A stretch of DNA of 64,000 bases from Cognatilysobacter terrigena. GTDB taxonomy: Bacteria > Pseudomonadota > Gammaproteobacteria > Xanthomonadales > Xanthomonadaceae. The stretch covers positions 177,714-241,713 of the forward strand of contig NZ_SELT01000002.1 of NCBI RefSeq assembly GCF_004361065.1. Reading direction: 5' to 3'. Position numbers and translations under genes: made by a program. Below the pieces are notes generated by a model. The model was not told the origin of the DNA, ran no database searches, and saw only the letters and a program-made list of their open reading frames with translations. Shown here in pieces: positions 15,482 through 41,787 of this stretch (position 1 is its first letter; every line of letters begins with the position of its first letter).

Positions 15482-16231
15482 GTGACGTCCCAGCAGCTCC
15501 AGACCGCGGCCGATGCGACCGAGGGGAGCGATCTCGACCCGGTCGGGCGAGTCGATCGGGAGATCATCCGTCAGGTCGACCTCGACCGCGCGACAGCGCT
15601 GATCGAACGCCGCAGTGCGTCGGGCCTGCTCGACGAGCTCGCCGGCATCGTGCAGGCGCTCGAAGTCGCCGATTCCCGTACCACGCCGCGCCGGGCCACC
15701 ATCGTCGGCCGGTTGCTGGGTCGCGATCTGTCCGGGCAGGCGCGGGCGCGCCAGGCGCACGAACACGTCCGCATCCGTCTTCAACTCGCCGAGCGCCGTG
15801 CGCACGACGTGCTCGCGCACGTCCGCGAACTCGACGACGCGAGCGCGCACATCGCGCGCCAGCGCGCGCGGCTCGCCGAGATCGCCGAACGCGGTCGCGA
15901 AGCATTCGATGCCTTCGAAGGCGGTACGCGATCCGATGCGATGGGGCGTCGCCTCGACCACCTCACGCTGCTGTTGAGCACGTGGGACATCGCGATTGCG
16001 CATCTGCGGCTCGTGCGCCAGTACGACGAACTCCTGCTCGCACGCTATGCACACGTGCGCGACGTCGTGGTGCCGCAGTGGTTGCGTCGCGTCGATGCTG
16101 CACTTGCAGCCGAGGAACACGACGGCCCGCCGCCGGGCGAGCCGTTGCGCGAAGCACTGGCGGTGCTGTTGCAGGTGACCGCACCGGAGCCCGCGGTGTT
16201 CCCGCGCGCCGAGGACGTGCGCGTCGTCTGA
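15482..16231 (+). CDS. Hypothetical helical protein, possible divergent short TelA-family (toxic anion resistance) paralog
   Basis: GTG start 6 nt after a CAGGAG ribosome-binding site. C-terminal HVRDVVVPQWLRR resembles the VRDITIPAWKR signature of the TelA at 39084-40178. Predicted all-helical. Confidence 0.4.
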   Translation: MTSQQLQTAADATEGSDLDPVGRVDREIIRQVDLDRATALIERRSASGLLDELAGIVQALEVADSRTTPRRATIVGRLLGRDLSGQARARQAHEHVRIRLQLAERRAHDVLAHVRELDDASAHIARQRARLAEIAERGREAFDAFEGGTRSDAMGRRLDHLTLLLSTWDIAIAHLRLVRQYDELLLARYAHVRDVVVPQWLRRVDAALAAEEHDGPPPGEPLREALAVLLQVTAPEPAVFPRAEDVRVV

Positions 16232-25598: not shown

Positions 25599-28256
25599 AT
25601 GACGAATTGGTCGGCGCTTCGTATCGAGGGCACATGGCTGCGCAGCCGCCTCGCACGACGCATCTTCCTCATGTTCTGCGCGATGGCGTTCGTGCCCGCC
25701 GCGCTCGTGTTCTGGCTCACGTGGCGACAGGCCGATCTCACGGTCCGTACCGCCGAACAACGCGACCTGCGTGCAGAGACGCGATTCGTCGCGTTCACCC
25801 TGCTCAGCCGACTGCAAAGCGCCGAAGCCCTGTTGACGCGCATCGCCGCAGCCGGCGGCGTGCCGGATTCGAACGATGCGGACGTTTTCGACGCCGTTGT
25901 TCGTCGAACGCTTGCCAACGGCGTGGACACGTCGCGACTGTCGCGTCTGCACGTGTCAACGGTCCCGGGCGCGCAGATCGGTCGAGCTGTCTTGCTCGTC
26001 GCACGGCCGCAGCCCGACGGATCGACGGTGATCTACGCCGGCACGTTGTCGCCGCGCTACCTATGGCGGGCGGACGAGGATGTCGTCGAAGGCACCCGCA
26101 TCTGTATTCGTTCCAGCGTGCAGGCGCTCGGCTGCGGCGGTGAGGTCACGTCGGGCGCACGCACGATTCGGACGTCGTGGGACCTCGACCTGAAGACCGA
26201 ATACGGCGCGCCCGTGTGGCGTTTCGACGCCGAGCGCGAGTCGGGCGCGGCGCCCGCGTTGCGCGTGCACTGGTTCGCGCTGCTGGCCGCCGGCGTGCTG
26301 CTGATGGCGATGCTGATGAGCCTGGTGCAGATCCGTCGCACGCTGGTTCCGCTGGAAGCATTGATCGATCGCATCCGCGCGTTCTCCGGCTCGCGACGCG
26401 CCGTGCAGCGGAACTCGAACTCTGACGAGCTCGCGACGCTGTCGCACACCTTCGACGAGATGCAGCAGCGGATCGGCGGGCAGCTTGCGCGCCTGCACGG
26501 CTTGTCGGCGGTGGATGGCGAGATCGTGTCGCGCCAACCGCTCAGCGCCATCCTCGAGAGCGTTGCCGAGCAACTGCGTGCGTTGCCCGGCGTGCTCGAG
26601 GCCGCGGTCATCGTCGAGGTATCTGCAAGCGGGCCGCGCGACGTGTATCCGGCAAGCAACTCCGCGCACGAGCGGCACAAGGTGCTGCAGGTCATCGATT
26701 CGGTGCGCGTCGAGCGCGATGGCGATCCGTGGCAGCGCGTCGTCACGCCAGACGAGCATGACGGAGCGGGCAGCGTCTGGTATCGCCTCTCCCTCGCCGC
26801 GTCCGACGACCATCGCGCCTGGGCGGTCGTGGCGCTGGATACACGAGCAGAGCGCGATCCCGAAACGCTCGACGCCGCACGTCAGCTCGCCGACCGCGTC
26901 GCCATCGCGCTTGCACTCGACGCGCGCGAGCGTCGTCTCGTGCACCAGTCGCGCCACGATGCACTCACCGGCCTGCCGAATCGGCTGGCGATCATCGAAG
27001 AACTCGAAGCCGCGATCGCAACGTCGTCGCGGCCGTTCGCGGTCGTCTTCATGGATCTGGATCGCTTCAAGTCGGTCAACGACGGGCTCGGCCATGCGCT
27101 GGGCGACGCGCTGCTCGCTGAAATCGCGGCGCGACTTGCCAGCACGCTGTCGGCGGACGACGTCGTCGCACGCCTCGGCGGTGATGAGTTCGTGCTGCTC
27201 CTGCGCGATGTCGCAGGCATGGACGACATCGACGCCGTGCGCGCACGCATCGACACGGCGTTCGGACTGCCGGTGACGCTCGGCGACCACGTCATGGCGA
27301 TCCGCTACAGCGCGGGCGTCGCGTTCCATCCCGTCGATGGCGACGATGCCCACGATCTGCTGCGCAAGGCGGACGTGGCGATGTATCGCGCCAAGCAGGA
27401 GGGCGGCGGGCGCTTCGCGGCGTATTCGGCGGGCATGAACGAGGCGGCGCGCGAGGAGGTCGAACTGGTGGCGGCGCTGCGTGTCGCGCTGTCGGACGAG
27501 GCGCTGGATGTGCACTACCAGCCCCGCATCGATCCGCACACCCGCCAATGGCAGGGCATGGAAGCGCTGGCGCGGTGGCACGATCCGCAGCGCGGCTGGA
27601 TCCCGCCGTCGAAATTCGTCCCGCTCGCAGAGCGGCACGGGCTGATCGACGCGCTGGGCGCGCTGGTGCTTCGGAAGACGTGCGCGCAGATCGCCGCATG
27701 GCGTGCGCTCGGCTTCGCGCCGGGGCGCGTCGCGATCAACGTGTCGAGCGAACAGTTGCGTGCCGGGACGCTCGTGGACGACATCGGTCGCGTCCTCCTC
27801 GCCAGCGGCGCGGAGTGGTCGGACCTCGAAATCGAGATCACCGAGTCGCTGCTGATCGCCGATGCCGAGACGAGCTCGCGACAGTTGCAGGCGCTGCGGG
27901 ATCTCGGTGTGCATGTCGCGATCGATGACTTCGGCACCGGCTACAGCTCGCTCGCCTATCTCGCGCGATTGCCGCTGGATACCATCAAGATCGATCGCGC
28001 GTTCGTGGTCGCACTCGACGAGCCCGGAACGGCGTCGGTGGTGCGTTCGATCCTTGCGCTCGCCACGGCGCTGGGCAAGCGCGTCGTCACGGAGGGCGTG
28101 GAAACCGAATCGCAGCTGCAGGTCCTGCAATCGTGGGGCTGCGACGTGTTCCAGGGCTATCTGTTCTACCGCCCGATGCCGGCTGCGGACGTCGGCACGT
28201 TGCTGGCAGCTGCATCGGCGGGCGCAGTGGGCAGCGAGAAGTCGTTGGCGCCGTAG
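25599..28256 (+). CDS. Membrane sensor GGDEF-EAL protein (c-di-GMP cyclase/phosphodiesterase)
   Basis: Two TM helices flank a periplasmic domain; HAMP-like linker. GGDEF domain with GGDEF motif (LGGDEFVLLL). EAL domain with EALARW, ...EITES..., DDFGTGYSSL. Confidence 0.9.
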   Translation: MTNWSALRIEGTWLRSRLARRIFLMFCAMAFVPAALVFWLTWRQADLTVRTAEQRDLRAETRFVAFTLLSRLQSAEALLTRIAAAGGVPDSNDADVFDAVVRRTLANGVDTSRLSRLHVSTVPGAQIGRAVLLVARPQPDGSTVIYAGTLSPRYLWRADEDVVEGTRICIRSSVQALGCGGEVTSGARTIRTSWDLDLKTEYGAPVWRFDAERESGAAPALRVHWFALLAAGVLLMAMLMSLVQIRRTLVPLEALIDRIRAFSGSRRAVQRNSNSDELATLSHTFDEMQQRIGGQLARLHGLSAVDGEIVSRQPLSAILESVAEQLRALPGVLEAAVIVEVSASGPRDVYPASNSAHERHKVLQVIDSVRVERDGDPWQRVVTPDEHDGAGSVWYRLSLAASDDHRAWAVVALDTRAERDPETLDAARQLADRVAIALALDARERRLVHQSRHDALTGLPNRLAIIEELEAAIATSSRPFAVVFMDLDRFKSVNDGLGHALGDALLAEIAARLASTLSADDVVARLGGDEFVLLLRDVAGMDDIDAVRARIDTAFGLPVTLGDHVMAIRYSAGVAFHPVDGDDAHDLLRKADVAMYRAKQEGGGRFAAYSAGMNEAAREEVELVAALRVALSDEALDVHYQPRIDPHTRQWQGMEALARWHDPQRGWIPPSKFVPLAERHGLIDALGALVLRKTCAQIAAWRALGFAPGRVAINVSSEQLRAGTLVDDIGRVLLASGAEWSDLEIEITESLLIADAETSSRQLQALRDLGVHVAIDDFGTGYSSLAYLARLPLDTIKIDRAFVVALDEPGTASVVRSILALATALGKRVVTEGVETESQLQVLQSWGCDVFQGYLFYRPMPAADVGTLLAAASAGAVGSEKSLAP

Positions 28257-28427: not shown

Positions 28428-28787
28428 ATGACCTCGTTGGCCCAGCGCATCCGCCGCGCACGCACCGCCGCCGGCCTTTCGCAAAGCACGCTCGCCGCGC
28501 GCATCGGCATCAAACGGAGCGCGGTGACGCAGTGGGAGCACCCGCACGGCACGCGTCCGAGCGTCGACCACCTCATCCGCATCGCGATCGAAACCGGCAC
28601 CGGCTTCGAGTGGCTGGCCACGGGCCGTGGCCCGAGCGAACTCGATCCGCTCGACACCACCCCCGCGGTTCTCGTCGACGACTACGCCGGCGACGAATTC
28701 GAAGCCCAGGCCCTCGGCCACCTCCGCCGTATGCCACCCGCGAAGAAGCGCATGGCCGTGGCGATATTGGAGACGATGGGGCGATGA
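28428..28787 (+). CDS. XRE-family helix-turn-helix transcriptional regulator
   Basis: 119 aa; LAQRIRRARTAAGLSQSTLAARIGIKRSAVTQWE is a canonical Cro/C1-type HTH. Confidence 0.75.
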   Translation: MTSLAQRIRRARTAAGLSQSTLAARIGIKRSAVTQWEHPHGTRPSVDHLIRIAIETGTGFEWLATGRGPSELDPLDTTPAVLVDDYAGDEFEAQALGHLRRMPPAKKRMAVAILETMGR

Positions 28788-28914
28788 CGGTCGGCGATGA
28801 TCGAACCCGCTGGGCGCTAAGGCACTGCGGCAGCCCAGCCCCATACTGCCGCTCGTCGGAAACGTCACCACAGCTGCTAGTCCGGGATTTCATGTAAGCG
28901 TACAGTCGCCTTCC

Positions 28915-29553
28915 ATGAAAGGCGATCGCCCCCGCAGCTCGACGGACTACGTCCGGGAATTCCGCAAGCGGATGCGGGAATCCGGCCTGGTGAAGCGCGA
29001 GGTCTGGATCCGCCCCGAGCGGGCCCCCGAGCTGACGGCGATCGAAAAGCAGCTGCGCCAGCCGCCCGGTACGGCGACGGCGCTCGACGAAGAGCGATCG
29101 GCTCGGCCGGGCTGGACCGTACACGCGCTCGCCGTCGCGCTCGCAGCGACCCGGCCCGTGCTTACGGGCCGCGTCACCATCGAACTCATCGAGGGTGCGG
29201 AGCCCAGTCTCCACCTCGTCATGCACGACTACGGCGACCTGCCGGTTTTCGTTGCGATCGGTGGCGAGCAGATCATCGTGCAGGTGCTGATGTGGCCCGT
29301 GGACGACGTCGTCGACACGGCAGCGTTCGACATGCACGTGCTTCGGACACACAAGCTGCTGCCACTCAGCACGATGGGCATCGAGCCGATCGGTGGTGTC
29401 ATGAGCTACATCATGTTCGGCTCGCTCGACACCCATTCGAGCCTCGCCAACGTCCTGTTCGAAATCGAAACGCTCGCCGAGAACGTGCTGAGCGCCGCGG
29501 AGTCGTACGCGCCGTTCCTGCGCCCCGAACTTCTCGACGAGGCGGCCGCATGA
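28915..29553 (+). CDS. DUF2170/YjfI-like protein with N-terminal extension
   Basis: 212 aa; C-terminal two-thirds (...VFVAIGGEQIIVQVLMWPVDDVVDTAAFDMHVLRTHKLLPLSTMGIEPIGG...YIMFGSLDTHSSLANVLFEIETLAENV) resembles the YjfI family, which precedes PspA-like yjfJ in enterobacteria. ATGA overlap with the next gene. Confidence 0.5.
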   Translation: MKGDRPRSSTDYVREFRKRMRESGLVKREVWIRPERAPELTAIEKQLRQPPGTATALDEERSARPGWTVHALAVALAATRPVLTGRVTIELIEGAEPSLHLVMHDYGDLPVFVAIGGEQIIVQVLMWPVDDVVDTAAFDMHVLRTHKLLPLSTMGIEPIGGVMSYIMFGSLDTHSSLANVLFEIETLAENVLSAAESYAPFLRPELLDEAAA

Positions 29554-30287
29554 ACCCTTTCAGTCGCCTCATGGGACGGGTCCGCGAGCAGCTCGTCGAA
29601 CTCGGCGAAAGCCTCGCCGGCAGCCAGGCCGAGCGGTCGCTGGACGATCGCATCCGCCGTGCCGACGATCAGTTGCGCGAATGGCGGGCCTCGCTGGCCG
29701 AGTTCCGCGCGAAGCACATGGCCGCGAAGGAACGCCACGACGCCACGATCGCCATCGTGCTGCAACGCGAAGCGCAGACGGCCGTCGCTCTGCAAGCCGG
29801 GCAGGACGCCCTGGCCACCGAAGTCGCTGCCGAGATCGATCGATTGGAGCAGGCACGCGACGACGAGGCGGAACTGATGGGTCATCTCGACGCCTGCATC
29901 GCACAGATGACGCCCCTCGTGGAGCAGGGCGAACGCCAGCTGCGGCGCTTGCGACACCAGCTCGACGTCCTGCGCGCTGCGCACGCCGTGCAGCGTGCGC
30001 AGGAAGCCGTCGCCGGCCGCGGTGATGGTGATGCGGTTCGCCCGCAGACCGCACTCGATTCGTTGGCTCGCGTTCGTCGACAGCACGAAGCGGCGAGCGC
30101 ACCCGAGTGCGCCGCGGTCGACACGTCGTCGACCGGGGCAGATACCGATCCGCTCGACGCAAAGCTTCAGGACGCGGGTGTCGATCGCCGTGCGCGCATC
30201 GACGCGATCCTCGCCCGCATTCGCGCGTCGGCCGAGCCCGCACCGACCCGGCCGGCCGGACGTGCCACCCGCAAGGCATCGTCATGA
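29550..30287 (+). CDS. PspA/IM30 family protein (YjfJ-like)
   Basis: 245 aa, long coiled-coil. MNPFSRLMGRVREQLVELGESLAGSQ... is a typical PspA/Vipp1 N-terminal amphipathic helix. ATGA overlaps on both sides. Confidence 0.75.
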   Translation: MNPFSRLMGRVREQLVELGESLAGSQAERSLDDRIRRADDQLREWRASLAEFRAKHMAAKERHDATIAIVLQREAQTAVALQAGQDALATEVAAEIDRLEQARDDEAELMGHLDACIAQMTPLVEQGERQLRRLRHQLDVLRAAHAVQRAQEAVAGRGDGDAVRPQTALDSLARVRRQHEAASAPECAAVDTSSTGADTDPLDAKLQDAGVDRRARIDAILARIRASAEPAPTRPAGRATRKASS

Positions 30288-30949
30288 CCGATTTCCTTAC
30301 TACCGCATTGACGTTCCCGACCGTCGTCTACAGCGTGTTGCTGGCGGTCTGTCTGATCTATTGGCTGCTCGCCGCGACCGGCCTGATGGACCACCACGCG
30401 CCCGACGCGCTCCTGCATGGGCATCTGCACGGCGGCGACCTGCACGGGCACGGCGATCACCATGCAGAAGCCAGCGACCTTGCGGCGTTGCTCGGCCGGC
30501 TGGGCCTCGCCGGCGTGCCGGTCATGGTCATCGCGACGGTGCTCAGCTTCTTCGGCTGGATGTGCGCGTACTACGCGCAACTGCTCGTGCTCGATCACCT
30601 GCACACGACGTTGCGCGTCGCGATCGGCATCGCGGTCGATGTCGCTGCCCTCGTGCCGGGTCTCATTGCGACGTCGATCGCCCTCCGCCCGGTCAGCCGC
30701 TGGATCCTGAAGCTGCGTCCGCCCGTGGAGCCCAGCCTGCTCGGGCGCGTCGCGGTCGTCAGTACGCCGGTGGTCGACGACCGCTACGGCCAGGCACGCG
30801 TCGACGACGGCGGCGCCGGATTGATCCTGCAAGTACGTACCAACGAACCCGGCCGGTACAAGCGCGGCGACCGGGTCGTGCTCATCGAGTTCCTCGATGC
30901 GCAACATGCCTACCGCGTCGTCCCGGAACATCAGTTCCACAGTCTGTAA
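30284..30949 (+). CDS. YqiJ/NfeD-like membrane protein (DUF1449; OB-fold partner of flotillin)
   Basis: 221 aa with an N-terminal TM helix, a His-rich loop and further TM helices. C-terminal soluble beta-rich domain (GRVAVVSTPVVDDRYGQARVDDGGAGLILQVRT...GDRVVLIEF) typical of NfeD/YqiJ proteins encoded upstream of flotillins. Confidence 0.65.
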   Translation: MTDFLTTALTFPTVVYSVLLAVCLIYWLLAATGLMDHHAPDALLHGHLHGGDLHGHGDHHAEASDLAALLGRLGLAGVPVMVIATVLSFFGWMCAYYAQLLVLDHLHTTLRVAIGIAVDVAALVPGLIATSIALRPVSRWILKLRPPVEPSLLGRVAVVSTPVVDDRYGQARVDDGGAGLILQVRTNEPGRYKRGDRVVLIEFLDAQHAYRVVPEHQFHSL

Positions 30950-30977
30950 GCGTCACACCTCAAGGAGAGGGTCGCAA

Positions 30978-33023
30978 ATGAGTATGTCCCTGATCATGCC
31001 GTTCATCATCGGCACCGGCGCGCTGCTGGTGGTGTTGCTCGGCCTTTTCGGCCTGTTCAAGGCTTTTTACGTCAAGGTCGAGCAGGGCACCGCCTTGATC
31101 GTCAACGACCTGAGCAGCACGCCCAAGGTGCGGTTCACGGGCGGCCTGATCATTCCGGTGCTGTACAAGGCCGAGTACATGCAGATCTCGCTCATCACCC
31201 TGCAGGTGGATCGCAAGGGCAAGGAAGGCTTGATCTGCAAGGACAACATGCGCGCCGATATCTCCGTTGCGTTCTACCTCCGCGTGAACGAGACGCAGCA
31301 GGACGTGCTGCGCGTGGCCAAGGCCATCGGCGCGCATCGCGCCTCCGACAAGGTCGCCGTGGACGAGCTGTTCAACGCCAAGTTCTCCGAGGCGCTGAAG
31401 ACCGTCGGCAAGCGCTTCGACTTCACCGAACTGTTCGACAAGCGCGAAGAGTTTCGGGACGAGATCGTTAAGGTCATCGGCAGCGACCTCAACGGTTATG
31501 CGCTCGAGGACGTCGCCATCGACTACCTCGAGCAGACGCCGAAGCACCTGCTCGATCCCAACAACATCCTCGACGCCGAGGGCATCAAGAAGATCACGGA
31601 GCTGACGTCGGCGCAGAACGTGCGCACGAATGATCTCGAACAGAATGCGACGCTCGAGATCCAGAAGCGCAACACCAGCGCCCGGGAAGCGGCGCTGGCG
31701 ATGGAGAAGCAAGTCGCTGAGGCGGAAGCGCGCCAGGCGCGTGAGGTTGCCGAGGTGCGGGCCCGTGAAGAGGCGGCTGCGAAGAAGGCGCAGGAAGAAC
31801 AGCGCCTGATCGCGGAGCAGGCGCGCCTGGAAACGGAAGAGAAGCTGCAGATTCGTGACCAGAACAAGCTGCGCGAGATCGAAGTTGCCGAGCAGAACCG
31901 TCAGCGCGCCGTGGCGATCGAAGCCGAGCGCGTCAACCGCGCGCGTTCGCTCGAGCAGGTGACCACCGAGCGTGAAGTGCAGCTGCAGAACGTCGAGCGT
32001 GACAAGGCGGTCGAAGCCGGCCGCATGGACGTCGCCAACATCACCCGCGAGCGCATCTCGATCGACAAGACGGTGGCGCAGGAGGAAGAGCGCATCAAGG
32101 ACGTGCGTGCCGTGTCGGAAGCCGAGCGCCAGCGCCAGGCGCGCGTCATCGCTGCCGAGGCGATTGCGCAGGAGGCGCTCGTCCGCACGGTGAAGGAGGC
32201 CGAGGCTGCCGAAGCCGCCTCGAAGCACCGCGCGAACGAGACGACCATCACCGCCGAGTCCGAACTGCAGTCGTCGATCAAGCTGTCGGAAGCCAAGCGC
32301 GTGCTGGCCGAAGGCGTCAAGGCCGAGCGCGCTGCGCCGGGCCTGGCCGAGGCGCAGGTGCGTGAAGCTAGCGCGGCGGCGATCGAGAAGGTCGGTATCG
32401 CGGAAGTGCGCGTGCTCGAGGCAAAGGCCGAAGCGACCTACAAGCAGGGCAATGCCGAAGGTCGCGTGCTGGCCGAGACGCTCGCGGCGAAGGCGCACGG
32501 CGAGGAGAAGATGGGTCTCGCGAAGGCGAAGGCGGTCGAAGCCGTCGGCACGGCCGAAGCCGAAGTGCTTGGCAAGCGCTTCAACGTCGAAGCGGAAGGC
32601 CTGAACAAGCGCTTCGCGGCACTGGACGAGCTCAGCGACAACGCGCGTGCGCACGAAGAGTTCCGCATGGTGTTGGAGAAGAACCTCGAGCAGGCGCTTG
32701 CCGCGATCGAGGCCGGCAAGGACGTCAGCAAGGAAAACGCCGAAGTCATCGCGACGGCGCTGCGTGGGGCGAACATCGACCTTGTGGGCGGCGACGGCGG
32801 GCTGTTCGAAAACTTCTCGAAGGCGCTGTCGCTGGGCAAGGCGATCGAAGGCTTCGCTGCCAAGAGTCCGATCGCGCAGGATCTGCTGGAGCGCTATCTC
32901 GGCGTTGCCAGACCCGCGCCGCGCGAGCGCGTGATCGATGCCGCCGGTGCCGCACCGATTGCAGCCGCGATCGAACGCGCCGCGCATGCTGCCGACGCGG
33001 AACCAGCCAAGCCCGCGGTCTGA
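30978..33023 (+). CDS. Flotillin family protein (SPFH/band-7; YqiK/FloT-like)
   Basis: Ribosome-binding site AAGGAGAGG 7 nt upstream. N-terminal TM helix. SPFH domain (KVEQGTALIVNDLSSTPKVRFTGGLIIPVLYKAEYMQISLITLQVD...). Very long E/A/R/K-rich flotillin coiled-coil. Confidence 0.9.
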   Translation: MSMSLIMPFIIGTGALLVVLLGLFGLFKAFYVKVEQGTALIVNDLSSTPKVRFTGGLIIPVLYKAEYMQISLITLQVDRKGKEGLICKDNMRADISVAFYLRVNETQQDVLRVAKAIGAHRASDKVAVDELFNAKFSEALKTVGKRFDFTELFDKREEFRDEIVKVIGSDLNGYALEDVAIDYLEQTPKHLLDPNNILDAEGIKKITELTSAQNVRTNDLEQNATLEIQKRNTSAREAALAMEKQVAEAEARQAREVAEVRAREEAAAKKAQEEQRLIAEQARLETEEKLQIRDQNKLREIEVAEQNRQRAVAIEAERVNRARSLEQVTTEREVQLQNVERDKAVEAGRMDVANITRERISIDKTVAQEEERIKDVRAVSEAERQRQARVIAAEAIAQEALVRTVKEAEAAEAASKHRANETTITAESELQSSIKLSEAKRVLAEGVKAERAAPGLAEAQVREASAAAIEKVGIAEVRVLEAKAEATYKQGNAEGRVLAETLAAKAHGEEKMGLAKAKAVEAVGTAEAEVLGKRFNVEAEGLNKRFAALDELSDNARAHEEFRMVLEKNLEQALAAIEAGKDVSKENAEVIATALRGANIDLVGGDGGLFENFSKALSLGKAIEGFAAKSPIAQDLLERYLGVARPAPRERVIDAAGAAPIAAAIERAAHAADAEPAKPAV

Positions 33024-33083
33024 CGAAGGAACCGCCGGGCGCCGTGTGGTGCCCGGCCTGCTCACGGAATGGAAGGCTTCTAG

Positions 33084-36000
33084 ATGTCCGAGTCCACGCC
33101 CACGGTCGCGTCCGGCGACACGTCTTCTGCAGTCGATCGCGCCGTCGCCGAGGGCGGTGCGTACGAGGTGCTGCGTCGGCGCCTGACCGAGCAGGGTGGT
33201 CGCCTGCGCGGAATCGCCGACACGCTCAATGCGCAACGCGTCGCCGAGTTCGGCGATAGCCGGCTCGAGGTGATCGGTCGCCTCCGGGTCCGCACCGAGC
33301 ACAACTGCGTAGGGCGCGACATCGTGCCCGTGGGCGGCTTGCTCTTGTTCGGCTACAACGTTTTCATGGGTCTGAAGACGACCACCGGCATCGCGGACGT
33401 CTTCGCCCTGTACCGCCTGGTCGAAACGGCGGACGGCTTCGACGTCGAAACCGTCGATCCGGCGAGCAGCTTCCTCGGTGACGCACAGTTCGAGCGCGAC
33501 TTCGCGGAGCTGTACGCGTATTACAAGAACGCACGTTTGCTGCAGCTCGACGTCACGGGCGGCAAGCTCCTCGCCGCGTTCCAGATCGGCGAGCGCAGCA
33601 CGGATGTGCGCGTCTTCCGTTGGGCGGTTTCGCCGCAGGGCGAAATCACTTACATCGACGCACGGGGCGAGCGCGACCTCATATTGCCGCCTCCGTTCGA
33701 TTTCGAGTGGACGCGCGCGACGCGCGACCTGATGGTCAGCGGTCGGTTTCCGCATCTCAATATTCTCGACACGTTGTTTGTCGAGACGACCGGTGGCGAC
33801 CTCACGATCAAGGTCGAGAACAATACCGAGACCGGTCAGGGCATCTACGCCGAGCCGGTCGACGACATCACGCAGTCGCTCGACGATGCGACGTTCGAGT
33901 TCGCCAAGCTCGGTTCGCTGATCCTGCTCAAAGTACTGCCGTACCGCGAGCACGCGTGGCGCGGCTTCATCTACAACACGCTCACCGGCAAGATCACGCG
34001 CAACGACGCGATCGTGCAGGCCTGTGTGCAGTTGCCCGAGGATCATGGGCTGCTGTTCCCTGGCGGGTACTACCTGCAGAACGGCGAACACAAGGCGTTC
34101 GACGCCCAGATGGACGGCATGCAGTTCCAGCGCGCCATCCGTTCGCCGAACGGCGAAGACGTGCTCTACATGTTCTACGAGCACGAGGCCGGAAAATCGG
34201 CACTGTTCGTCTACAACATGATCCAGCGCAAGCTGCAGAACCCGTTGTTTGGCCACGGTCATGCGGAGTTGCCGGACGGCCGCATGGTGCTGTTCGGCGC
34301 CGAGGGCGATGCGCCCACCCGCGTCCACGCGATGCAGGTCTGGCAGACCCCGTTCGTGTCCGACGAAGTGGCCGCGGCACGTCCGCCGGGGAACAGTTTC
34401 ATGGGCCGCCTGGGTAACGCAGAGCTGGTGCGCGGCATTTCCAACCTGCTGGAGCTCACGCGTGAGATCGAGCGCCCCGACGTGTCGGCGGCCCGCTATC
34501 AGCTCCTGGCCCAACATACGCGGCGGCTGTTCGATGCCCATCACTGGATCGACGACGCCCACTGTTGCGGCGCAGCGACCCTGCTGCGCGAGATTGCTGC
34601 GAGCAGCGAGTCCGTGCTCGACGAGTTCGAGAAGGTCGAGGGCATCCGCCGACAGTCGGAACAGGCGATCGTCCGCGCAGCCTCCGACCACAAGGCGCTG
34701 CTGGCTCGGCTGACACCTGACAGCTGGACGCAGGTTCAGGACTACGTCGACGCCATCAACGACATCACACGGCAGCGTGGTCATTTGCTGACCATTCGGG
34801 ACTACCGCTACATCGACGTTGCCGCGGTCGACGGGATGAACTCGGAACTCGAAGTGGCCCATGCGCGCATTGGCGCTGCGACGGGTACGTTCCTTGCCGG
34901 TGCGGCTGCGCTGGCACCGTTCGCCAAGCGGGTCGACGATCTCGACGCCGCGGCCCAGCAGGCGCAGACCGCGAAGCAGCTCGCCGAGCATCTCGCATCG
35001 CTGAAGACGCTGTCGGCGGATCTCGACATGCTTTCGGCGCTCATGGCCGGGTTGCAGGTGGAGGACGCGACCGAGCGCACACGCGTCGTTGACGCGATCG
35101 CGGGGATTTACGCGCGTCTCAACCAGGCGCGCGCACGCGCTGACCAGCGTCGCAAGTCGCTGGGCTCGGCTGAGGCTGTCGCGCAATTCGCTGCGCAGTT
35201 CGCACTTTTCGGGCAGTCCATTACGAGCGCGCTGGGTCTGGCGACAGATCCCGAGAAGGCCGACGAACAGCTGTCGCGACTCATGGTGCAACTCGAGGAA
35301 CTGGAGAGCCAGTTCGGCGAGCACGAGCAGTTCCTGGGCGACATCCTCACCAAGCGCGAAGAGCTGCTCGAGACATTCCAAGGCCACAAGCAGGCACTAC
35401 TCGACGAGCGCCAGCGCAAGGCACAGGCCGTTCTGGATGCCGCGAACCGAATCCTCGAAGGATTGAGCAAGCGTTGCGAGAAATTCACCACCGCGGACGA
35501 GCTCAATGCCTTCTTCGCGGGCGATCCGCTGATCCTCAAGCTGCGCGAACTGGCGGACCGGCTTCGCGCGCTGAAGGACAGCGTCAAAGCCGACGACGTC
35601 GCGGCACGACTCAAGGCGACGCGCGACCAGGCCGTCCGTGCGCTTCGCGATCGCAGTGACCTCTTCGAGGGCGGCGGGGACATCATCCGGCTCGGCCGTC
35701 ATCGCTTCAGCGTCAACACGCAGCCGCTCGATCTCACGATCCTGCCGCGCGGCGACCACCTCGCGCTGCACCTCACGGGCACCGACTTCATGGAGCCGAT
35801 CGACAGCGCTGAGCTCACTACGTTGCGCGAGTACTGGCAGACGGCGTTGGAATCGGAATCCGCCGAGCTCTATCGCGGCGAGTACCTTGCGGGCGAGCTG
35901 CTGACCGCGGCGGAGCAGGGCGCGGATGGGCTGTCACAGGAGAGCCTGCAGCGGCTCGCCGCCGACCCCGACGCGCTCGCCAAGGCAGTACGTGACTTCG

Positions 36001-38411
36001 CAGCCCCGCGCTATCGGGACGGCTACGAACGCGGCATTCATGATCACGACGCCGCGCGCATCCTGCGCGCGTTCCTCGCCCAACGCGGCGTCGCGGGTGA
36101 ACTCGTGCACGCGCCGGCGGCGCGGGCGCTTGCCGCCCTCTTCCAGGCCACCCATACCGACGACGCGGATGTCCGAGAGTGGCTTGGGCGTGCGAACGGC
36201 GCGAAGGCGATGCAGGTGTTGTTCAATGCGCGAAGCGGTCTGGATGCATTGCTTCGCGACATCAATGGGCGCATCGTCGCTTTCGTCGATGCCGCAGGGC
36301 TTCCGTTCGAGCCGGCCGACGCATCAGATGCAGCACGCTACCTCGTCGACGAACTGACCGCAGGCCAAAACGCGTTCGTCCTGTCGCGCTACGGCCGCGA
36401 ACTCGGCGAGGCGCTGCTCGCGCGTCTTGAGAGCGCAGGCCTCAAGGAGGGATTCGAGCGCACGATCGAGCAGTTCCGCGATCGCCCCGGCGCGCGCTGG
36501 CACCACGCGGTGCACTGGCTCGACGCGCTTTGCGGTGACGCGACGTTCGTCCCGATGCAGCGTTACGTCCCTGAAGCCGCCGCGTGGCTTCTTACGCGCG
36601 ATGTGCTGCCGCGTCGCGACAACGCGACGCCTCTCCTGACCGCCGTCGACGGCCTGCTGGGCGAGCACCCGCGTATCGCGAGCGGAACGCTGCACCTTGC
36701 GATCGACGACCTGCTCGCGCGTCTTCGCGCCCATCGCGAGCGTTTCCTGCCGGGCTATCGTCGGTACCAGGCACTTCGCCAGACCGTCGCGACGCGTGAA
36801 CGAGACGCACTGCGCCTGTCGGAGTTCAAGGCAAGGCCGCTTACGTCGTTCGTCCGCAACAAGCTGATCAACAAGGTCTACCTGCCGCTGATCGGCGACA
36901 ACCTCGCCAAACAGATGGGCACGGTCGGCGAAGGCAAGCGCAGCGATCTCATGGGCCTGCTCATGATGATCTCGCCGCCCGGCTACGGTAAGACGACGCT
37001 GATGGAGTACGTAGCGAATCGTCTCGGCCTGATCTTCATGAAGGTCAACGGGCCCGCGCTCGGCCATGAGGTTCGTTCCGTCGACCCCGCCCAGGCCCCC
37101 GACGCTACGGCGCGCCAAGAGCTGGAAAAGCTCAATCTCGCGCTCGAGATGGGCAACAACGTGATGCTGTACGTCGACGACATCCAGCACACCAGCCCCG
37201 AATTCCTGCAGAAGTTCATTTCACTCTGCGACGGCACGCGCCGCATTGAGGGCGTCTGGAAAGGGCGCAGCAAGACCTACGACATGCGGGGCAAGAAGTT
37301 CTGCGTCGTCATGGCTGGCAATCCGTATACGGAATCCGGTGAGGTCTTCAAGATTCCGGACATGCTCGCCAACCGTGCCGACATCTACAACCTCGGTGAC
37401 GTGCTCGGCGGCATGGAAGACGCCTTCCTGCTCAGCTATATCGAAAACAGCCTGACGTCGAACCCGGTGCTTGCGCCGCTCGCAACGCGCGACATGTCCG
37501 ATCTGTATCTCCTGATCGACAAGGCGATGGGCAAGGACGTTTCGACCAACGGCCTCAGCCATGCCTACAGCGGCGCCGAGATCAGCGAACTCGTCGCGAC
37601 GTTGCAGCGGCTCATCGCAGTGCGCACCGTGGTCTATCGCGTCAACCAGGAATACATCGCGAGCGCTGCGCAGGCCGACAGATACCGGACGGAGCCGCCG
37701 TTCAAGCTGCAGGGCAGTTACCGCAACATGGGTAAGCTGGCCGAGAAGATCTCGCCGGTGATGAACGATGCGGAAGTTCAGCAGCTGATTTCCGATCACT
37801 ACCTGGGCGAGGCGCAGCTGCTCACCCAGGGCGCGGAGGAAAACCTGCTAAAGCTCAAGGAATTGCGTGGTCTGCTGTCGGGGGACGATGCCATCCGCTG
37901 GGCGCAGATCAAGCGCGACTTCCTTCGTAACAAGGCGATGGGAAGCGACGACGCGGACGTCGGCGGTCGCGTTGTCGCCCAGCTCGCGGACATCGCGAGC
38001 GGGCTGCAGGCAATCGAAGGCGCGACAGCACGGCCTGCGGAAACACCCGCGCCGTGGGGCGAACTGCTGCAGTTGTTGCGCGACGCCGTCGAGCGACCGG
38101 CTGGATCCGCGACGGCGACCGAGGCGGCGCGGCCACCCGTAGACGATGTCGTGCGTGAAGCGCTCAAGCGCCTTCCCGACAGCCTGCATGCCGCGATCGT
38201 GCCGCTGCTCGATGCCCTGCGGAGTTCGCAGGATCAGCAGACCCGCGTGAATACGGCGATCATGCAGCTCGCCGAATCGCTGCGGGATGCGTCGCCCACG
38301 CGCCAAGTCCTGGTCGCGCCTGCGAAGACGCGCGGGCCCCATCACCCCACGGCGGAGGAAGCGCCGCTGGATCGCGCCCTCGAGCAGTTCGGCGCATCAC
38401 CCTCGCCGTGA
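33084..38411 (+). CDS. Giant (1775 aa) uncharacterised protein with C-terminal MoxR-like AAA+ P-loop ATPase module
   Basis: Single uninterrupted ORF. Walker A ISPPGYGKTT (~aa 1290). Walker B NVMLYVDDIQH. Sensor-1-like VVMAGNPY. Arg-rich ANRADIYNLGD. No TM segments. Ribosome-binding site GGAAGG. Stop overlaps the next start (GTGA). Confidence 0.8.
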   Translation: MSESTPTVASGDTSSAVDRAVAEGGAYEVLRRRLTEQGGRLRGIADTLNAQRVAEFGDSRLEVIGRLRVRTEHNCVGRDIVPVGGLLLFGYNVFMGLKTTTGIADVFALYRLVETADGFDVETVDPASSFLGDAQFERDFAELYAYYKNARLLQLDVTGGKLLAAFQIGERSTDVRVFRWAVSPQGEITYIDARGERDLILPPPFDFEWTRATRDLMVSGRFPHLNILDTLFVETTGGDLTIKVENNTETGQGIYAEPVDDITQSLDDATFEFAKLGSLILLKVLPYREHAWRGFIYNTLTGKITRNDAIVQACVQLPEDHGLLFPGGYYLQNGEHKAFDAQMDGMQFQRAIRSPNGEDVLYMFYEHEAGKSALFVYNMIQRKLQNPLFGHGHAELPDGRMVLFGAEGDAPTRVHAMQVWQTPFVSDEVAAARPPGNSFMGRLGNAELVRGISNLLELTREIERPDVSAARYQLLAQHTRRLFDAHHWIDDAHCCGAATLLREIAASSESVLDEFEKVEGIRRQSEQAIVRAASDHKALLARLTPDSWTQVQDYVDAINDITRQRGHLLTIRDYRYIDVAAVDGMNSELEVAHARIGAATGTFLAGAAALAPFAKRVDDLDAAAQQAQTAKQLAEHLASLKTLSADLDMLSALMAGLQVEDATERTRVVDAIAGIYARLNQARARADQRRKSLGSAEAVAQFAAQFALFGQSITSALGLATDPEKADEQLSRLMVQLEELESQFGEHEQFLGDILTKREELLETFQGHKQALLDERQRKAQAVLDAANRILEGLSKRCEKFTTADELNAFFAGDPLILKLRELADRLRALKDSVKADDVAARLKATRDQAVRALRDRSDLFEGGGDIIRLGRHRFSVNTQPLDLTILPRGDHLALHLTGTDFMEPIDSAELTTLREYWQTALESESAELYRGEYLAGELLTAAEQGADGLSQESLQRLAADPDALAKAVRDFAAPRYRDGYERGIHDHDAARILRAFLAQRGVAGELVHAPAARALAALFQATHTDDADVREWLGRANGAKAMQVLFNARSGLDALLRDINGRIVAFVDAAGLPFEPADASDAARYLVDELTAGQNAFVLSRYGRELGEALLARLESAGLKEGFERTIEQFRDRPGARWHHAVHWLDALCGDATFVPMQRYVPEAAAWLLTRDVLPRRDNATPLLTAVDGLLGEHPRIASGTLHLAIDDLLARLRAHRERFLPGYRRYQALRQTVATRERDALRLSEFKARPLTSFVRNKLINKVYLPLIGDNLAKQMGTVGEGKRSDLMGLLMMISPPGYGKTTLMEYVANRLGLIFMKVNGPALGHEVRSVDPAQAPDATARQELEKLNLALEMGNNVMLYVDDIQHTSPEFLQKFISLCDGTRRIEGVWKGRSKTYDMRGKKFCVVMAGNPYTESGEVFKIPDMLANRADIYNLGDVLGGMEDAFLLSYIENSLTSNPVLAPLATRDMSDLYLLIDKAMGKDVSTNGLSHAYSGAEISELVATLQRLIAVRTVVYRVNQEYIASAAQADRYRTEPPFKLQGSYRNMGKLAEKISPVMNDAEVQQLISDHYLGEAQLLTQGAEENLLKLKELRGLLSGDDAIRWAQIKRDFLRNKAMGSDDADVGGRVVAQLADIASGLQAIEGATARPAETPAPWGELLQLLRDAVERPAGSATATEAARPPVDDVVREALKRLPDSLHAAIVPLLDALRSSQDQQTRVNTAIMQLAESLRDASPTRQVLVAPAKTRGPHHPTAEEAPLDRALEQFGASPSP

Positions 38412-39103
38412 CCGAACGCTGTCCTGCTGCAGGCGGGCCAAGGATCAGCGACGCGCCGTCCGCGCGCGCGCGGTTGCTGGAGGACGTCGCCGACCTGCTG
38501 GCGCGGCAGCCCGCCACGGATCTTCTCGGTGACCTCCGGCAGTGGCTCGAGGGGTTAGTCCCGCAGCGACGGGGCCTGTCGGCTCTTGCCGATCGCCTAC
38601 TCGCACGAGACCTCGTGCGGGCAGCGCATCCCGACGCGCTGGACGCGCGGCTGCGTGTCATCGACGATCGCTGCGCCGCGCATGCGGCTGCAACGGAGCG
38701 CTTTCTCGCCCACGCGGACAGCGCCATCCGCGATGCGGACCAGCAGCTCGAAATGATCGGGCGGGAGCGCGAGAAGGCGTCAGCGGCGATGGCCGACGAC
38801 GTCGCTGCGGGCCCGGGGGCGCTGCAGCGCCTGGATGCTTTGCACGCATCATGGCTCGCGACGCGCGCGCAGGTCGCACTGGCCCGGTCGACGGCGGAAG
38901 CAGTGCTCGACCAGTACCAGCACATGCGTGACCTGCTCATGCCGCTGTGGCGGCAGCACGGCGCGGCCAGAGCGGCGGCCGAACATGCGCGTGCCGCCCG
39001 GGGCTTGGCAGAGCTGCAAGCCGCGTTCGCCGCTGGCCCCACCAACCTATCGTTGATCGACCCGCACGCACTGGAGAGTCTCGATGACCGCACCCACTCA
39101 TGA
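38408..39103 (+). CDS. Short TelA-like helical protein (TelA-family paralog)
   Basis: GTG start overlapping the giant ORF's stop. C-terminal ...DQYQHMRDLLMPLWRQH parallels the TelA signature ...KFGSVRDITIPAWKRS. 20-nt overlap with the downstream TelA. Confidence 0.45.
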   Translation: MTERCPAAGGPRISDAPSARARLLEDVADLLARQPATDLLGDLRQWLEGLVPQRRGLSALADRLLARDLVRAAHPDALDARLRVIDDRCAAHAAATERFLAHADSAIRDADQQLEMIGREREKASAAMADDVAAGPGALQRLDALHASWLATRAQVALARSTAEAVLDQYQHMRDLLMPLWRQHGAARAAAEHARAARGLAELQAAFAAGPTNLSLIDPHALESLDDRTHS

Positions 39104-40178
39104 TCTCGTTGCTGCCACACCCGCCGCTGGATTGGATGCCGCCACGCTGCGGGCCATGGACCTGCAGCCCGCGGACGCCGAAGCGATCGAGAGCCTGCGC
39201 GCGGCGCTCGCCGCCCAGCCCGTAACGGACCTGCAGGGTTATGGACGAGACGCCTCATTGCGTACGACGCAGTTCTCCAGCCAATTGCTCGATCAGGTTC
39301 GCAACAAGGATCTCGACGATGCAGGCGTCAAGCTCGGTGAGGTCGTCCGAATCGCGCGATCATTGAACCTGCAGAAGTTCGCCGGGCGGTCGAAGGTACC
39401 GGTCATCGGACCGTTGATCGACCGCATGCGCGACGCGAAGGGCGAGCTGGTGCAGAAGTTCAGCAGCACCAACCAGCAGATCGACCAGCTGATGCGCGAC
39501 CTCTCGCGCCAGCAGGACGATCTCGGCAAGCGCGTACGCGACTTCGACCGCATGCACGACATCGTGCTCGAGGAACGCCATCAGCTGGGTGTGCACGTGG
39601 CCGCGGGCAAGCTCCGTCTCGCCGAACTCGACGAAGCGCGTCGTGCACTCGATGGGCTGGAGGATGCGGAGTCGCGGACCCGTCGGTCCGAACTCGAGAT
39701 GGCGATCCGGCTACTCGACAAGCGCGTTGGCGATCTTCAACTCATGCGGCATGCCGCGGAGCAGACGCTGCCGATGATTCGTCTGATTCAGGCGAACTCG
39801 ATGCAGCTTATCGAGAAGTTCGGCTCGGTGCGCGACATCACCATCCCCGCGTGGAAGCGGAGTTTCGCGCTTCAACTGTCACTCAACGAGCAGCAGAACG
39901 CGGTGCAGCTGGCCACCGCCATCGACGACGCCACCAACGAGCTCATGCGGCGCAATGCCGACCTGCTTCGCGAGAACTCCGTAGCGACCGCACGCGCCAA
40001 CCAGCGCGGCGTGATCGACATCGAGACGCTGCAGCACGTGCATGAGCAGCTGATCCAGACGGTCGAGGATGTCCGCCAGATCCATCGGGAAGGTGCCGAA
40101 AAGCGTCACCAGGCCGAGCAGGACCTCGCGCGCATGCGCGACGATGTCCAAAAGCGGCTCGCGGCGCCAAACGTATGA
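39084..40178 (+). CDS. telA: Toxic anion resistance protein TelA (KlaA/TelA family)
   Basis: 364 aa; full-length TelA hallmarks (..LDQVRNKDLDDAGVKLGEVVRIARSL...; TLPMIRLIQANSMQLIEKFGSVRDITIPAWKRSF). Confidence 0.85.
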   Translation: MTAPTHDLVAATPAAGLDAATLRAMDLQPADAEAIESLRAALAAQPVTDLQGYGRDASLRTTQFSSQLLDQVRNKDLDDAGVKLGEVVRIARSLNLQKFAGRSKVPVIGPLIDRMRDAKGELVQKFSSTNQQIDQLMRDLSRQQDDLGKRVRDFDRMHDIVLEERHQLGVHVAAGKLRLAELDEARRALDGLEDAESRTRRSELEMAIRLLDKRVGDLQLMRHAAEQTLPMIRLIQANSMQLIEKFGSVRDITIPAWKRSFALQLSLNEQQNAVQLATAIDDATNELMRRNADLLRENSVATARANQRGVIDIETLQHVHEQLIQTVEDVRQIHREGAEKRHQAEQDLARMRDDVQKRLAAPNV

Positions 40179-40861
40179 TCGCGTTGGACGACCTGGACCG
40201 GCTGCTGCGCGAATCCGCCGCCGACGGACGCCTCGACCACGACGAACGTCTGGAACTGCGCGACATCGGCCAACAGGCGACCGCCGATCAGGTCCGTTTC
40301 CTGCGCAATCGCGCGTTCGATATCGCACGCGAGTCGATGCGGGCTGATGCGACGACGGCGCTCGATGTGCTGCGCTGGTTGGAGCAGGTGGTGAAGACGC
40401 TGGAGGTCGCTGCGATCGGTGCGAGCGCGGCGACGACGGCCTTCTTCTCGCCCGGGGATGCGTGCCTGCGGCAGCTGCAGTCGCTGTGGTCGAATGCCAA
40501 GCGCTCGGCCGATGCGTGCGTGTTCACCATTGCGGACGATCGCATCACGCGCGTCATTCTGGACGCGCATCGCCGCGGCGTAACGGTGCGGATCGTCAGC
40601 GACGACGACAAACGTTTCGACACGGGCAGTGATCTGGACGAGCTAGTTGTGGCCGGAGTTTCGGTGCGCACCGATGCCACGCCGTATCACATGCATCACA
40701 AATTCGCGGTTTTTGATGGCGCGACTGTGGCGAACGGCAGTTTCAACTGGACGCGTAGCGCGAGCTCGAACAACTTCGAGAATCTTGTCGTCAGCAGCGA
40801 TCCGTACCTGGCGCGTGTGTTCGCGGGCCATTTCGAGACGCTCTGGAGTCGCTTCGCGTAA
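40175..40861 (+). CDS. Phospholipase D/Nuc-like HKD domain protein (single HKD motif) with helical N-terminal extension
   Basis: HxKxxxxD...GSxN motif present: MHHKFAVFDGATVANGSFNWT. ATGA overlap with telA. Confidence 0.75.
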   Translation: MIALDDLDRLLRESAADGRLDHDERLELRDIGQQATADQVRFLRNRAFDIARESMRADATTALDVLRWLEQVVKTLEVAAIGASAATTAFFSPGDACLRQLQSLWSNAKRSADACVFTIADDRITRVILDAHRRGVTVRIVSDDDKRFDTGSDLDELVVAGVSVRTDATPYHMHHKFAVFDGATVANGSFNWTRSASSNNFENLVVSSDPYLARVFAGHFETLWSRFA

Positions 40862-41106: not shown

Positions 41107-41349
41107 TCAGCCGATGGCGTGCGTCTGACGGATCTTCGTGATGCGTGCGGCGACTGTCGGGTCGAGCTGCGTTTGCTCGGCCTGCTTGAAAATGCTCTGC
41201 AGAACCCGCTTTTCGTCTTCGTCGTACGTGCCGTCGCGTTCTGCGAGTTCGAGCAGCTTGTCGAGTTCCGCGTGGTCGAGCAGACCATCGTTGGTGAACA
41301 GGGGGATCGAGGCGAGGGCGACGTCGAGATGGCTGCGGGACGATGGCAT
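41107..41349 (-). CDS. Hypothetical small acidic protein, possibly TerB-like
   Basis: 80 aa; LFTNDGLLDHAELDKLLELAERDGTYDEDEKRVLQSIF resembles TerB/DjlA-N-type helical domains. Confidence 0.35.
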   Translation of the reverse strand: MPSSRSHLDVALASIPLFTNDGLLDHAELDKLLELAERDGTYDEDEKRVLQSIFKQAEQTQLDPTVAARITKIRQTHAIG

Positions 41350-41681: not shown

Positions 41682-41705
41682 AAAAAAGCCCGCGCAGTGG
41701 CGGGC
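41682..41705 (-). terminator. Rho-independent terminator downstream of tRNA-Met
   Basis: On the minus strand, GCCCGC-CACTGC-GCGGGC hairpin followed by TTTTTT. Confidence 0.7.
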
Positions 41706-41710
41706 GTAGA

Positions 41711-41787
41711 TGGTGGCTATGGGTGGACTCGAACCACCGACCCCAGCATTATGAGTGCTGTGCTCTAACCGGCTGAGCTACATAGCC
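41711..41787 (-). tRNA. tRNA-Met (anticodon CAT), elongator type
   Basis: Minus-strand sequence GGCTATGTAGCTCAGCCGGTTAGAGCACAGCACTCATAATGCTGGGGTCGGTGGTTCGAGTCCACCCATAGCCACCA folds as a canonical cloverleaf. 7-bp acceptor with G1-C72, encoded CCA. Close to E. coli elongator tRNA-Met. Confidence 0.9.

Follow-up and report, generated by a model that had tools for sequence, protein, structure and literature searches.

A bac-type gene array with an inserted KlaA-like/TelA pair in Cognatilysobacter terrigena

Gene order, junctions and products

Within a 64-kb stretch of Cognatilysobacter terrigena DNA (hereafter the window; G+C ~68%) lies a co-directional array of genes encoding, in this order, a homologue of the Pseudomonas aeruginosa regulator BacA, a PspA/IM30 protein, a YqiJ/NfeD-like membrane protein, a flotillin-like protein, a giant MoxR-like AAA+ ATPase, a KlaA-like protein (g7), TelA and a phospholipase D (PLD)-family enzyme (Table 1). 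This C. terrigena operon has the published bac-type architecture and carries an additional KlaA-like/TelA gene pair. Its relatives were collected by scanning one genome per species with the ATPase, which occurs in at least 575 species. The 80 best-matching loci were retrieved, and complete-locus counts refer to the 64 loci with enough flanking sequence.

The initial annotation had described a translationally coupled array of nine genes beginning with an XRE gene. All nine open reading frames (ORFs) were confirmed on the + strand with the identities proposed, and the five overlapping junctions it listed proved correct on a base-by-base check: ATGA overlaps join BacA to PspA (29550), PspA to YqiJ (30284) and TelA to PLD (40175), a GTGA overlap joins the ATPase gene to g7 (38408), and g7 and telA overlap by 20 nucleotides (nt) at 39084. 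The translational coupling is real. The YqiJ-to-flotillin gap measures 28 nt and contains an AAGGAG ribosome-binding site, the flotillin-to-ATPase gap measures 60 nt, and internal terminators within the operon were not found above chance. The claim that all gaps are 60 nt or less fails between XRE and BacA, which are separated by 127 nt containing the conserved promoter/operator of the operon. Since XRE thus lies across a promoter and is without counterpart beside all 80 related loci, the coupled array comprises eight genes, BacA to PLD (28915–40861), and XRE was dropped as an operon member or regulator. In the TelA/PLD region no further coupled ORF was found downstream of telA, the PLD gene being the one that follows it.

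Table 1. Features of the array and its immediate surroundings (positions in the window)
Position	Strand	Feature	Details
28428-28787	+	XRE (HTH_3) gene	Pfam HTH_3
28850-28861	+	Conserved 12-nt upstream element CGCTCGTCGGAA	54-65 nt before BacA ATG
28888-28920	+	Promoter/operator	Arm 1 TTTCATGTAAG 28888-28898; -10 TACAGT 28901-28906; arm 2 CTTCCATGAAA 28910-28920
28915-29553	+	BacA homologue: N-terminal MazE-like putative DNA-binding domain (residues 1-50) and DUF2170/CesT-like domain (67-202)	Pfam DUF2170 E 2e-45
29550-30287	+	PspA/IM30 protein, ESCRT-III superfamily, YjfJ/BacB type	Pfam PspA_IM30 E 9.5e-21
30284-30949	+	YqiJ/NfeD-like multi-pass membrane protein, BacC position	Pfam YqiJ_N E 0.002, below threshold
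30978-33023	+	Flotillin-like SPFH protein, BacD position; N-terminal transmembrane helix and long coiled coil	
33084-38411	+	1775-aa ATPase, BacE position	DUF3686, DUF7902, AAA/AAA_5
38408-39103	+	KlaA-like helical-hairpin protein g7, 231 aa	Coupled to ATPase stop codon
39084-40178	+	TelA (KlaB) family protein	Pfam TelA E 6e-76
40175-40861	+	Single-HKD PLD-family enzyme, Nuc/Zucchini/MitoPLD type, BacF position	PLDc_2 E 1e-26
41107-41349	-	80-aa acidic EF-hand/TerB-like protein	Two DGxxDxxE motifs; convergent to operon

As can be seen from the E values in Table 1, the initial domain calls hold for BacA, PspA, TelA and the PLD enzyme. Those for YqiJ and flotillin stand as well, at scores below threshold only: flotillin matches Band_7 over the full profile with E 1.9e-4 (22 bits vs the 23.6 cut-off), Flot with E 0.02 and NCBIfam FloT with E 1e-4. 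Flotillin is 56–76% identical across genera, and a YqiJ-like homologue lies directly upstream of it in 64/64 complete loci. The ATPase is composed of DUF3686 (residues 41–487, E 2e-192), which is a β-propeller according to Ravi et al. (PMC11237479), a coiled coil with DUF7902 (609–692, E 8e-25) and an AAA+ module at ~1285–1560 that matches AAA_5 and has the MoxR-like fold. A sequence search of the PDB returned nothing for flotillin or for the N-terminal 1150 amino acids (aa) of the ATPase.

The 231-aa g7 protein is 100% identical to a C. terrigena protein at NCBI. By hhalign, its family profile aligns over 193 columns (probability 97.6%, E 3.9e-12) with the product of a 261-aa gene that, on a conjugative plasmid of the IncP type, overlaps the telA start; this gene, called hypothetical in its record, we take from its position to be klaA of klaA-telA-telB (kilA). 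Six of 21 family members also match Pfam TelA (best 6e-6), and these two profile results bear out the earlier "TelA-like" call, indicating that g7 is a diverged relative of the TelA/KlaA group. Its AlphaFold 2 model is a long helical hairpin (predicted local distance difference test score, pLDDT, 71), for which a fold search gave unspecific matches. The family occurs in 21 loci among the first ORFs after the ATPase gene, overlapping the ATPase stop codon by 4 nt in about two-thirds of them, and TelA is present in 21/21; TelA itself is 57–77% identical in Lysobacteraceae loci and 47% identical to the IncP-type plasmid TelA. Because g7 aligns with the gene preceding plasmid telA, the inserted module is best described as a KlaA-like/TelA dyad without TelB. 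As in the IncP klaA-klaB(telA)-klaC(telB) (kilA) cluster, the two genes are adjacent and overlap, whereas the pair in the window is chromosomal and embedded in a flotillin/PspA operon, and no KlaC/TelB gene was found downstream of telA, where the PLD gene stands instead. Equating g7 with the small ORF that follows the ATPase gene in Pseudomonas was rejected, as the two are not homologous and that ORF encodes a rhomboid protease. The window holds a second, standalone KlaA-like paralogue (15482–16231, +), 33–36% identical to the copies in four Lysobacter loci (L001–L004, see below), with which it has the motif Y.H[VM]RD..[VM]P.W in common; it is flanked by genes for a MASE1-PAS-GAF hybrid histidine kinase (11344–15003) and a VIT/TPR/DUF2135 protein (16731–19667).

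In the PDB, the PLD enzyme comes closest to mitochondrial cardiolipin hydrolase/Zucchini (E 4.6e-26) and Nuc endonuclease (E 3.4e-14). Its HHKF (HxK) and GSFNWT motifs are kept in 24 homologues, its N-terminal helical domain is conserved and carries a DGxxDxxE motif, and identity to the same-position gene in Pseudomonas, Lysobacter and other loci is 44–64%; an exact-protein look-up of the window enzyme gave no record. The gene for the 80-aa protein comes 245 nt after the stop codon of the PLD gene. The protein shows similarity to the N-terminus of the PLD enzyme (E 4e-5), and members of its family match EF-hand (10/18, best 2e-4) and TerB (10/18, best 5e-3) models, in both cases below threshold. 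Homologues occur in 19/64 loci, either between flotillin and the ATPase, as in L001–L004 and many Pseudomonas loci, or upstream of BacA, as in other Lysobacteraceae loci (directly so in five). The 80-aa protein is a recurrent component of the system, its gene being displaced downstream and convergent in the window.

Relation to the bac operon and modular variants

The window BacA matches the NCBIfam model "biofilm formation regulator BacA" (E 1e-77, 260 bits, below the 300-bit cut-off) and, over residues 66–203 only, the crystal structure of P. aeruginosa BacA (PDB 8q8o, E 2e-39). A P. paraeruginosa locus (L029) holds the same six genes in the same order, BacA-PspA-YqiJ-flotillin-AAA+-PLD, to which the window genes are orthologous one by one, with the KlaA-like/TelA dyad inserted after the ATPase. 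The hallmarks of a bac-type operon are found here: a DUF2170 gene followed directly, with an ATGA overlap, by a YjfJ-type pspA; a YqiJ-flotillin pair, recognized by position (64/64 loci) with individual Pfam scores just under the cut-offs; a giant AAA+ ATPase with N-terminal DUF3686 and coiled coil; and the optional HKD PLD gene at the 3'-end.

The bac cluster of P. aeruginosa was described in 2008 as PA3732-PA3729 (PMC2587700) and was extended in 2024 to the six-gene operon bacABCDEF, for which reverse-transcription PCR across every junction demonstrated a single transcript (PMC10948618). This "biofilm-associated cluster" (PA3732-PA3727 / PA14_16140-16200) encodes the same six proteins in the same order as the window, its BacF being assigned to the PLD type by way of the P. 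paraeruginosa locus, and has a common promoter architecture of paired CATG operators with the ATG just past the −10 box. The window differs in the KlaA-like and TelA genes between the ATPase and PLD genes, in the opposite strand of the small EF-hand/TerB-like gene, in protein sequence (identities 38–64%) and in the operator half-sites (TTTCATGTAAG/CTTACATGAAA vs two TYACATGTRA palindromes). Phenotypes of bac in biofilm formation, rhamnolipids and virulence are known for Pseudomonas only. Expression data on relatives include induction of PA3731 on osmotic shock (PMC2587700), upregulation of PA3728-32 during infection by two lytic phages (PMC12041424), a rank among the top RsmA-regulated genes of P. 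aeruginosa for the ATPase gene PA14_16190, and upregulation of yjfIJKL in heat-evolved E. coli strains (PMC12492005).

Ravi et al. (mSystems 2024, PMC11237479) likewise describe an operon of CesT/Tir-PspA, band-7/flotillin, AAA+ and YqiJ, "in some Proteobacteria also PLD". Their description matches the window gene by gene, down to the HKD hydrolase as an option and the wider spread of the shortened flotillin-YqiJ-AAA+ core; the main text of their paper is without the TelA, KlaA-like, rhomboid and EF-hand/TerB-like add-ons, the BacA N-terminal domain and the operator. The opinion in the initial annotation that no described system has exactly this composition was thus mistaken, given bacABCDEF (PMC2587700, PMC10948618) and the operon of Ravi et al. 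(PMC11237479). Literature searches for DUF3686, or for PspA, flotillin, TelA and AAA+ combined, found nothing. The novelty lies in the rarely seen combination of two variants of a known operon, the TelA type and the PLD type, and in details of its regulation and composition.

Across the best 80 loci the ATPase is 56–74% identical to that of the window, declining with taxonomic distance from Lysobacter (71–74%) through Stenotrophomonas (67–71%), Pseudomonas (60–64%) and Enterobacterales (59–62%) to Betaproteobacteria (56–59%). A search of 1.84 billion representatives with the DUF3686 region gave 736 relatives at the 50%-cluster level, most of them proteins of 1600–2000 aa. The ATPase was found on 13 of 72,556 plasmid records, all large replicons (among them pQBR103 and megaplasmids of Deinococcus and Streptomyces), and on no phage record. 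On pQBR103, a megaplasmid of P. fluorescens SBW25, the YqiJ-SPFH-ATPase trio (89658–97641) directly follows DUF2491-DUF350-DUF1190-glutathionylspermidine synthase genes, a neighborhood of the polyamine type that Ravi et al. describe for PspA, and a PLD gene lies 8 kb further.

YqiJ-flotillin-ATPase is the invariant core (64/64 complete loci). Around it, BacA, usually with PspA, is present in 38/64 loci, PLD in 32, TelA in 25 and a rhomboid protease gene coupled to the ATPase stop codon in 19; BacA-PspA, TelA, PLD, rhomboid and the EF-hand/TerB-like protein are accordingly optional, modular add-ons, of which TelA, rhomboid, PLD and the EF-hand/TerB-like protein are membrane-linked by family. 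TelA and PLD occur together in the window and in L001–L004 only. These four loci repeat the whole BacA-to-PLD order, and since it is kept gene for gene while their flanks are not syntenic with those of the window, the order is not due to chance. In many Pseudomonas and Enterobacterales loci the rhomboid gene (Pfam E 2e-18; for instance L030:15241-15804 and L077:14899-15474) fills the slot that KlaA-like/TelA occupies in Lysobacteraceae.

Promoter, operator and the N-terminal domain of BacA

The upstream regions of 42 BacA-bearing loci contain a σ70-like promoter, and in 40 of them at least two CATG-centered half-sites lie within −100 to +30 of the BacA start, where 0.016 per 130 nt would be expected. 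In Pseudomonas and the Lysobacter loci of the PLD type, the −35 box and spacer are flanked by two TYACATGTRA palindromes; loci of the TelA type have an inverted repeat, TTTCATGTAAG ... CTTACATGAAA, that runs across the −10 box and start codon. The BacA start codon of the window (28915–28917) lies inside operator arm 2. There is no Shine-Dalgarno sequence before this ATG, and in all genera the ATG stands 6–9 nt past a TAnnnT box; the operon transcript is therefore probably leaderless. A −24/−12-like AGGCAC-N6-AGC sequence at 28821–28834 is not conserved in relatives, and a σ54 promoter was rejected in favor of the conserved σ70-like one. Further upstream, the pattern CGYTCGTCSGRA, to which the 12-nt element of Table 1 conforms, has six exact occurrences in 1.8 Mb of related loci, all at the same position upstream of BacA (Lysobacteraceae), with no enrichment of CGCTCGTCGGAA/CGYTCGTCSGRA over the whole window; the element at 28850–28861 could be the site of a second regulator or an ECF (extracytoplasmic function)-type −35 box.

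Conservation in BacA is highest over its first ~50 residues (SSAxYQRxFRxRLRExGLVKKEVW...), a domain kept in 40 loci. Ten of 14 N-termini match the MazE-like antitoxin family PF11455, all below threshold (best E 1e-3), and a PDB search with the N-terminal profile found no match and no solved homologue. The crystallized P. aeruginosa protein (8q8o, 146 aa) begins at an internal Met and is without this domain, whereas in P. paraeruginosa (L029:5713) a conserved in-frame extension of ~60 aa (MERKSSAHYQRVFRQRLREQGLVKKEVW...) starts 6 nt past the −10 box. The crystal structure therefore probably lacks the putative DNA-binding domain, and the paper on it does not mention DNA binding. We infer that BacA is an operator-binding autorepressor, which would explain the published derepression in a bacA mutant, where BacB-F over-accumulate 6- to 13-fold (PA14 proteomics, PMC10948618). 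The layout of ATG, −10 box and operator points to an operon that is both leaderless and autorepressed. For transcription of the window genes as one operon under negative control by BacA, the conserved operator, the gene overlaps and the lack of internal terminators above chance all speak.

Proposed function, rival readings and neighboring features

We read the locus as a bac-type operon for stress response and maintenance of the inner membrane, with a probability of about 0.72. This agrees with the initial annotation in so far as its envelope-stress interpretation was reasonable, and the locus is still to be classed among envelope-maintenance operons; it does not represent a new type of system. 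With classical Psp (pspF-pspABCDE) and B. subtilis yuaFGI (NfeD2-FloT), the window has in common a PspA effector, a flotillin-NfeD pair and stress-inducible envelope maintenance; in place of PspF/PspB/PspC it has a CesT-like regulator, the giant MoxR-like ATPase, TelA and PLD, and no PspB, PspC or PspF domains were found in the operon or its flanks. An ESCRT-III polymer (PspA), an AAA+ ATPase and an EF-hand-like protein are likewise combined in eukaryotic and archaeal ESCRT-III/Vps4 repair, which is an analogy only, as the window ATPase is MoxR-like and Vps4 belongs to the classic AAA clade, and the EF-hand matches do not reach threshold. MitoPLD-type lipid hydrolases have also been linked to membrane fusion.

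What the sequences show is operon membership and a conserved cis-element; beyond these, the following course of events may be proposed. BacA would bind its operators through the N-terminal MazE-like domain and keep the operon repressed, while its CesT-like domain would bind PspA, so that BacA could couple PspA availability to transcription; repression would be lifted when PspA is drawn to damaged or depolarized membrane, or when it titrates BacA. Membrane-anchored flotillin, together with NfeD/YqiJ, might scaffold patches of anionic lipid, at which an ESCRT-III-like PspA polymer could seal or remodel the bilayer. The giant ATPase would dock via DUF3686 and its coiled coil and use ATP to drive polymer assembly or recycling. 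KlaA-like/TelA, the EF-hand/TerB-like protein, rhomboid and the MitoPLD-like enzyme would serve as exchangeable peripheral modules that detect ions or modify lipids where repair takes place, for example by conversion of cardiolipin into phosphatidic acid. The operon family is conserved across phyla and in P. aeruginosa is tied to biofilm formation and virulence; BacA, apparently a two-domain autorepressor with a defined operator, offers an experimental handle, and the variable slot after the ATPase (KlaA/TelA, rhomboid or PLD) puts TelA and KlaA in a flotillin/PspA membrane context. The recurrence of the EF-hand/TerB-like mini-protein suggests ion sensing.

Several points weigh against this reading. 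The DNA-binding role of the BacA N-terminus depends on below-threshold Pfam matches (best E 1e-3) to a domain with no solved homologue, the second operator arm of the window has one mismatch, and the −35 box of its promoter is weak (TAGTCC). Neither flotillin nor YqiJ reaches the curated cut-offs for its assignment, and the PLD enzyme stands no closer to a lipid hydrolase than to nucleases (Nuc, Zucchini). A VWA protein is the usual partner of a MoxR ATPase, and no VWA domain was found in the operon proteins. Operon status is deduced from the overlaps and from P. aeruginosa. Finally, the published P. aeruginosa model invokes σ54, and the lack of conservation of the −24/−12-like sequence seen here leaves room for such a site in Pseudomonas.

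A stronger form of the maintenance reading, in which the operon is a self-contained machine for repairing membrane wounds, gated by ion influx, we regard as doubtful. In such a machine the EF-hand/TerB-like protein and the PLD N-terminal domain would detect the entry of Ca2+ or another metal at a lesion and then recruit PspA, flotillin and the ATPase, with the MitoPLD-like enzyme converting cardiolipin locally for resealing. If true, this would make the operon a prokaryotic equivalent of the ESCRT repair that Ca2+/ALG-2 triggers, and it could protect against phage- or toxin-induced lesions; TelA and KlaA, whose function has to our knowledge been unclear since the RK2 kilA work, would gain a long-missing role as adaptors of the repair machine.

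The initial annotation had also raised the possibility of an abortive-infection or anti-phage system, in which PspA, flotillin and TelA would sense infection and license a PLD-family nuclease, with the ATPase as switch. TelA and TerB-like domains do occur in conflict-related Ter systems. The PLD domain belongs with the Nuc/Zucchini nucleases and gives weak PADLOC matches to DrmC and MkoB/C (E 1e-5 to 1e-6), an XRE regulator adjoins the operon, and the phage-induced PA3728-32 genes (PMC12041424) are homologues; phage induction would, however, be expected of a phage-shock type envelope response anyway, and XRE is not conserved at related loci. A search of PADLOC-DB v2 defense systems gave no system-level match: no model matches the core proteins, the HTH (capH, RmrA) and PLD (DrmC, MkoB/C) matches are generic, those of PspA (PbeC, E 0.0064) and the ATPase (LmuB, E 8e-4) are coiled-coil noise, and BacA, YqiJ, flotillin, g7 and TelA match nothing. 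PLD is optional: half of the loci, among them every one from Stenotrophomonas, do without it, and it therefore is not the obligatory effector of a defense system. The distribution of the ATPase, broadly chromosomal across phyla with identity falling along taxonomic distance, its few plasmid records being megaplasmid- to chromosome-sized and phage records lacking it, is unlike that of patchy, mobile defense islands. With no positive evidence emerging for it, we judge an anti-phage function improbable.

The KlaA-TelA and TerB-like modules might alternatively mark a determinant of resistance to tellurite, toxic anions or metals, like the plasmid kilA/tel loci. The TelA match (E 6e-76), the homology of g7 to the gene preceding telA on an IncP-type plasmid and the TerB-like motifs in the 80-aa protein and the PLD N-terminus would all agree with this. 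KlaC/TelB, which is needed for the plasmid tellurite-resistance phenotype, is not in the locus, however, and TelA is missing from most relatives of the operon. TelA proteins have also been linked to tolerance of envelope antibiotics, not to tellurite specifically. No TerC, TerD/TerZ/TerE or TerB genes of the Ter (terZABCDE) type were detected either, the below-threshold TerB/EF-hand-like motifs of the 80-aa protein being the only trace, and we hold a resistance determinant to be very unlikely. Least credible is that the giant protein is a DNA repair ATPase with the PLD enzyme as its nuclease partner and the membrane genes as mere neighbors. DUF3686 in Pfam and the Prokaryotic Genome Annotation Pipeline (PGAP) do label the ATPase "ATPase involved in DNA repair" or "DNA repair ATPase", and the PLD enzyme is Nuc-like, but no DNA-binding or repair domain was detected, the partners that are invariant across phyla are flotillin and the NfeD/YqiJ membrane protein, and the remaining ones are rhomboid protease, TelA and PspA; in our judgment the "DNA repair" name appears to be an inherited annotation.

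In the window the operon is preceded by the XRE gene and a gene for a GGDEF-EAL protein (25599–28256, +). XRE and GGDEF genes likewise stand just upstream of the YqiJ-flotillin-ATPase trio on a Deinococcus plasmid (L082), and the pairing was not seen in the 80 gammaproteobacterial loci. The GGDEF-EAL neighbor was rejected as a linked component: GGDEF matches elsewhere are at inconsistent positions, and its presence is therefore probably a coincidence. Shortly past the EF-hand/TerB-like gene comes a tRNA-Met (CAT) gene (41711–41787, −) with a terminator-like hairpin (41688–41705) after it, and no sign of an integrated element was seen. The region 54001–58000 of the window, with ORFs at 54586–55773, 55773–56897 and 57091–58365, has a G+C content of 0.575–0.617 vs ~0.69 elsewhere and may be horizontally acquired DNA.

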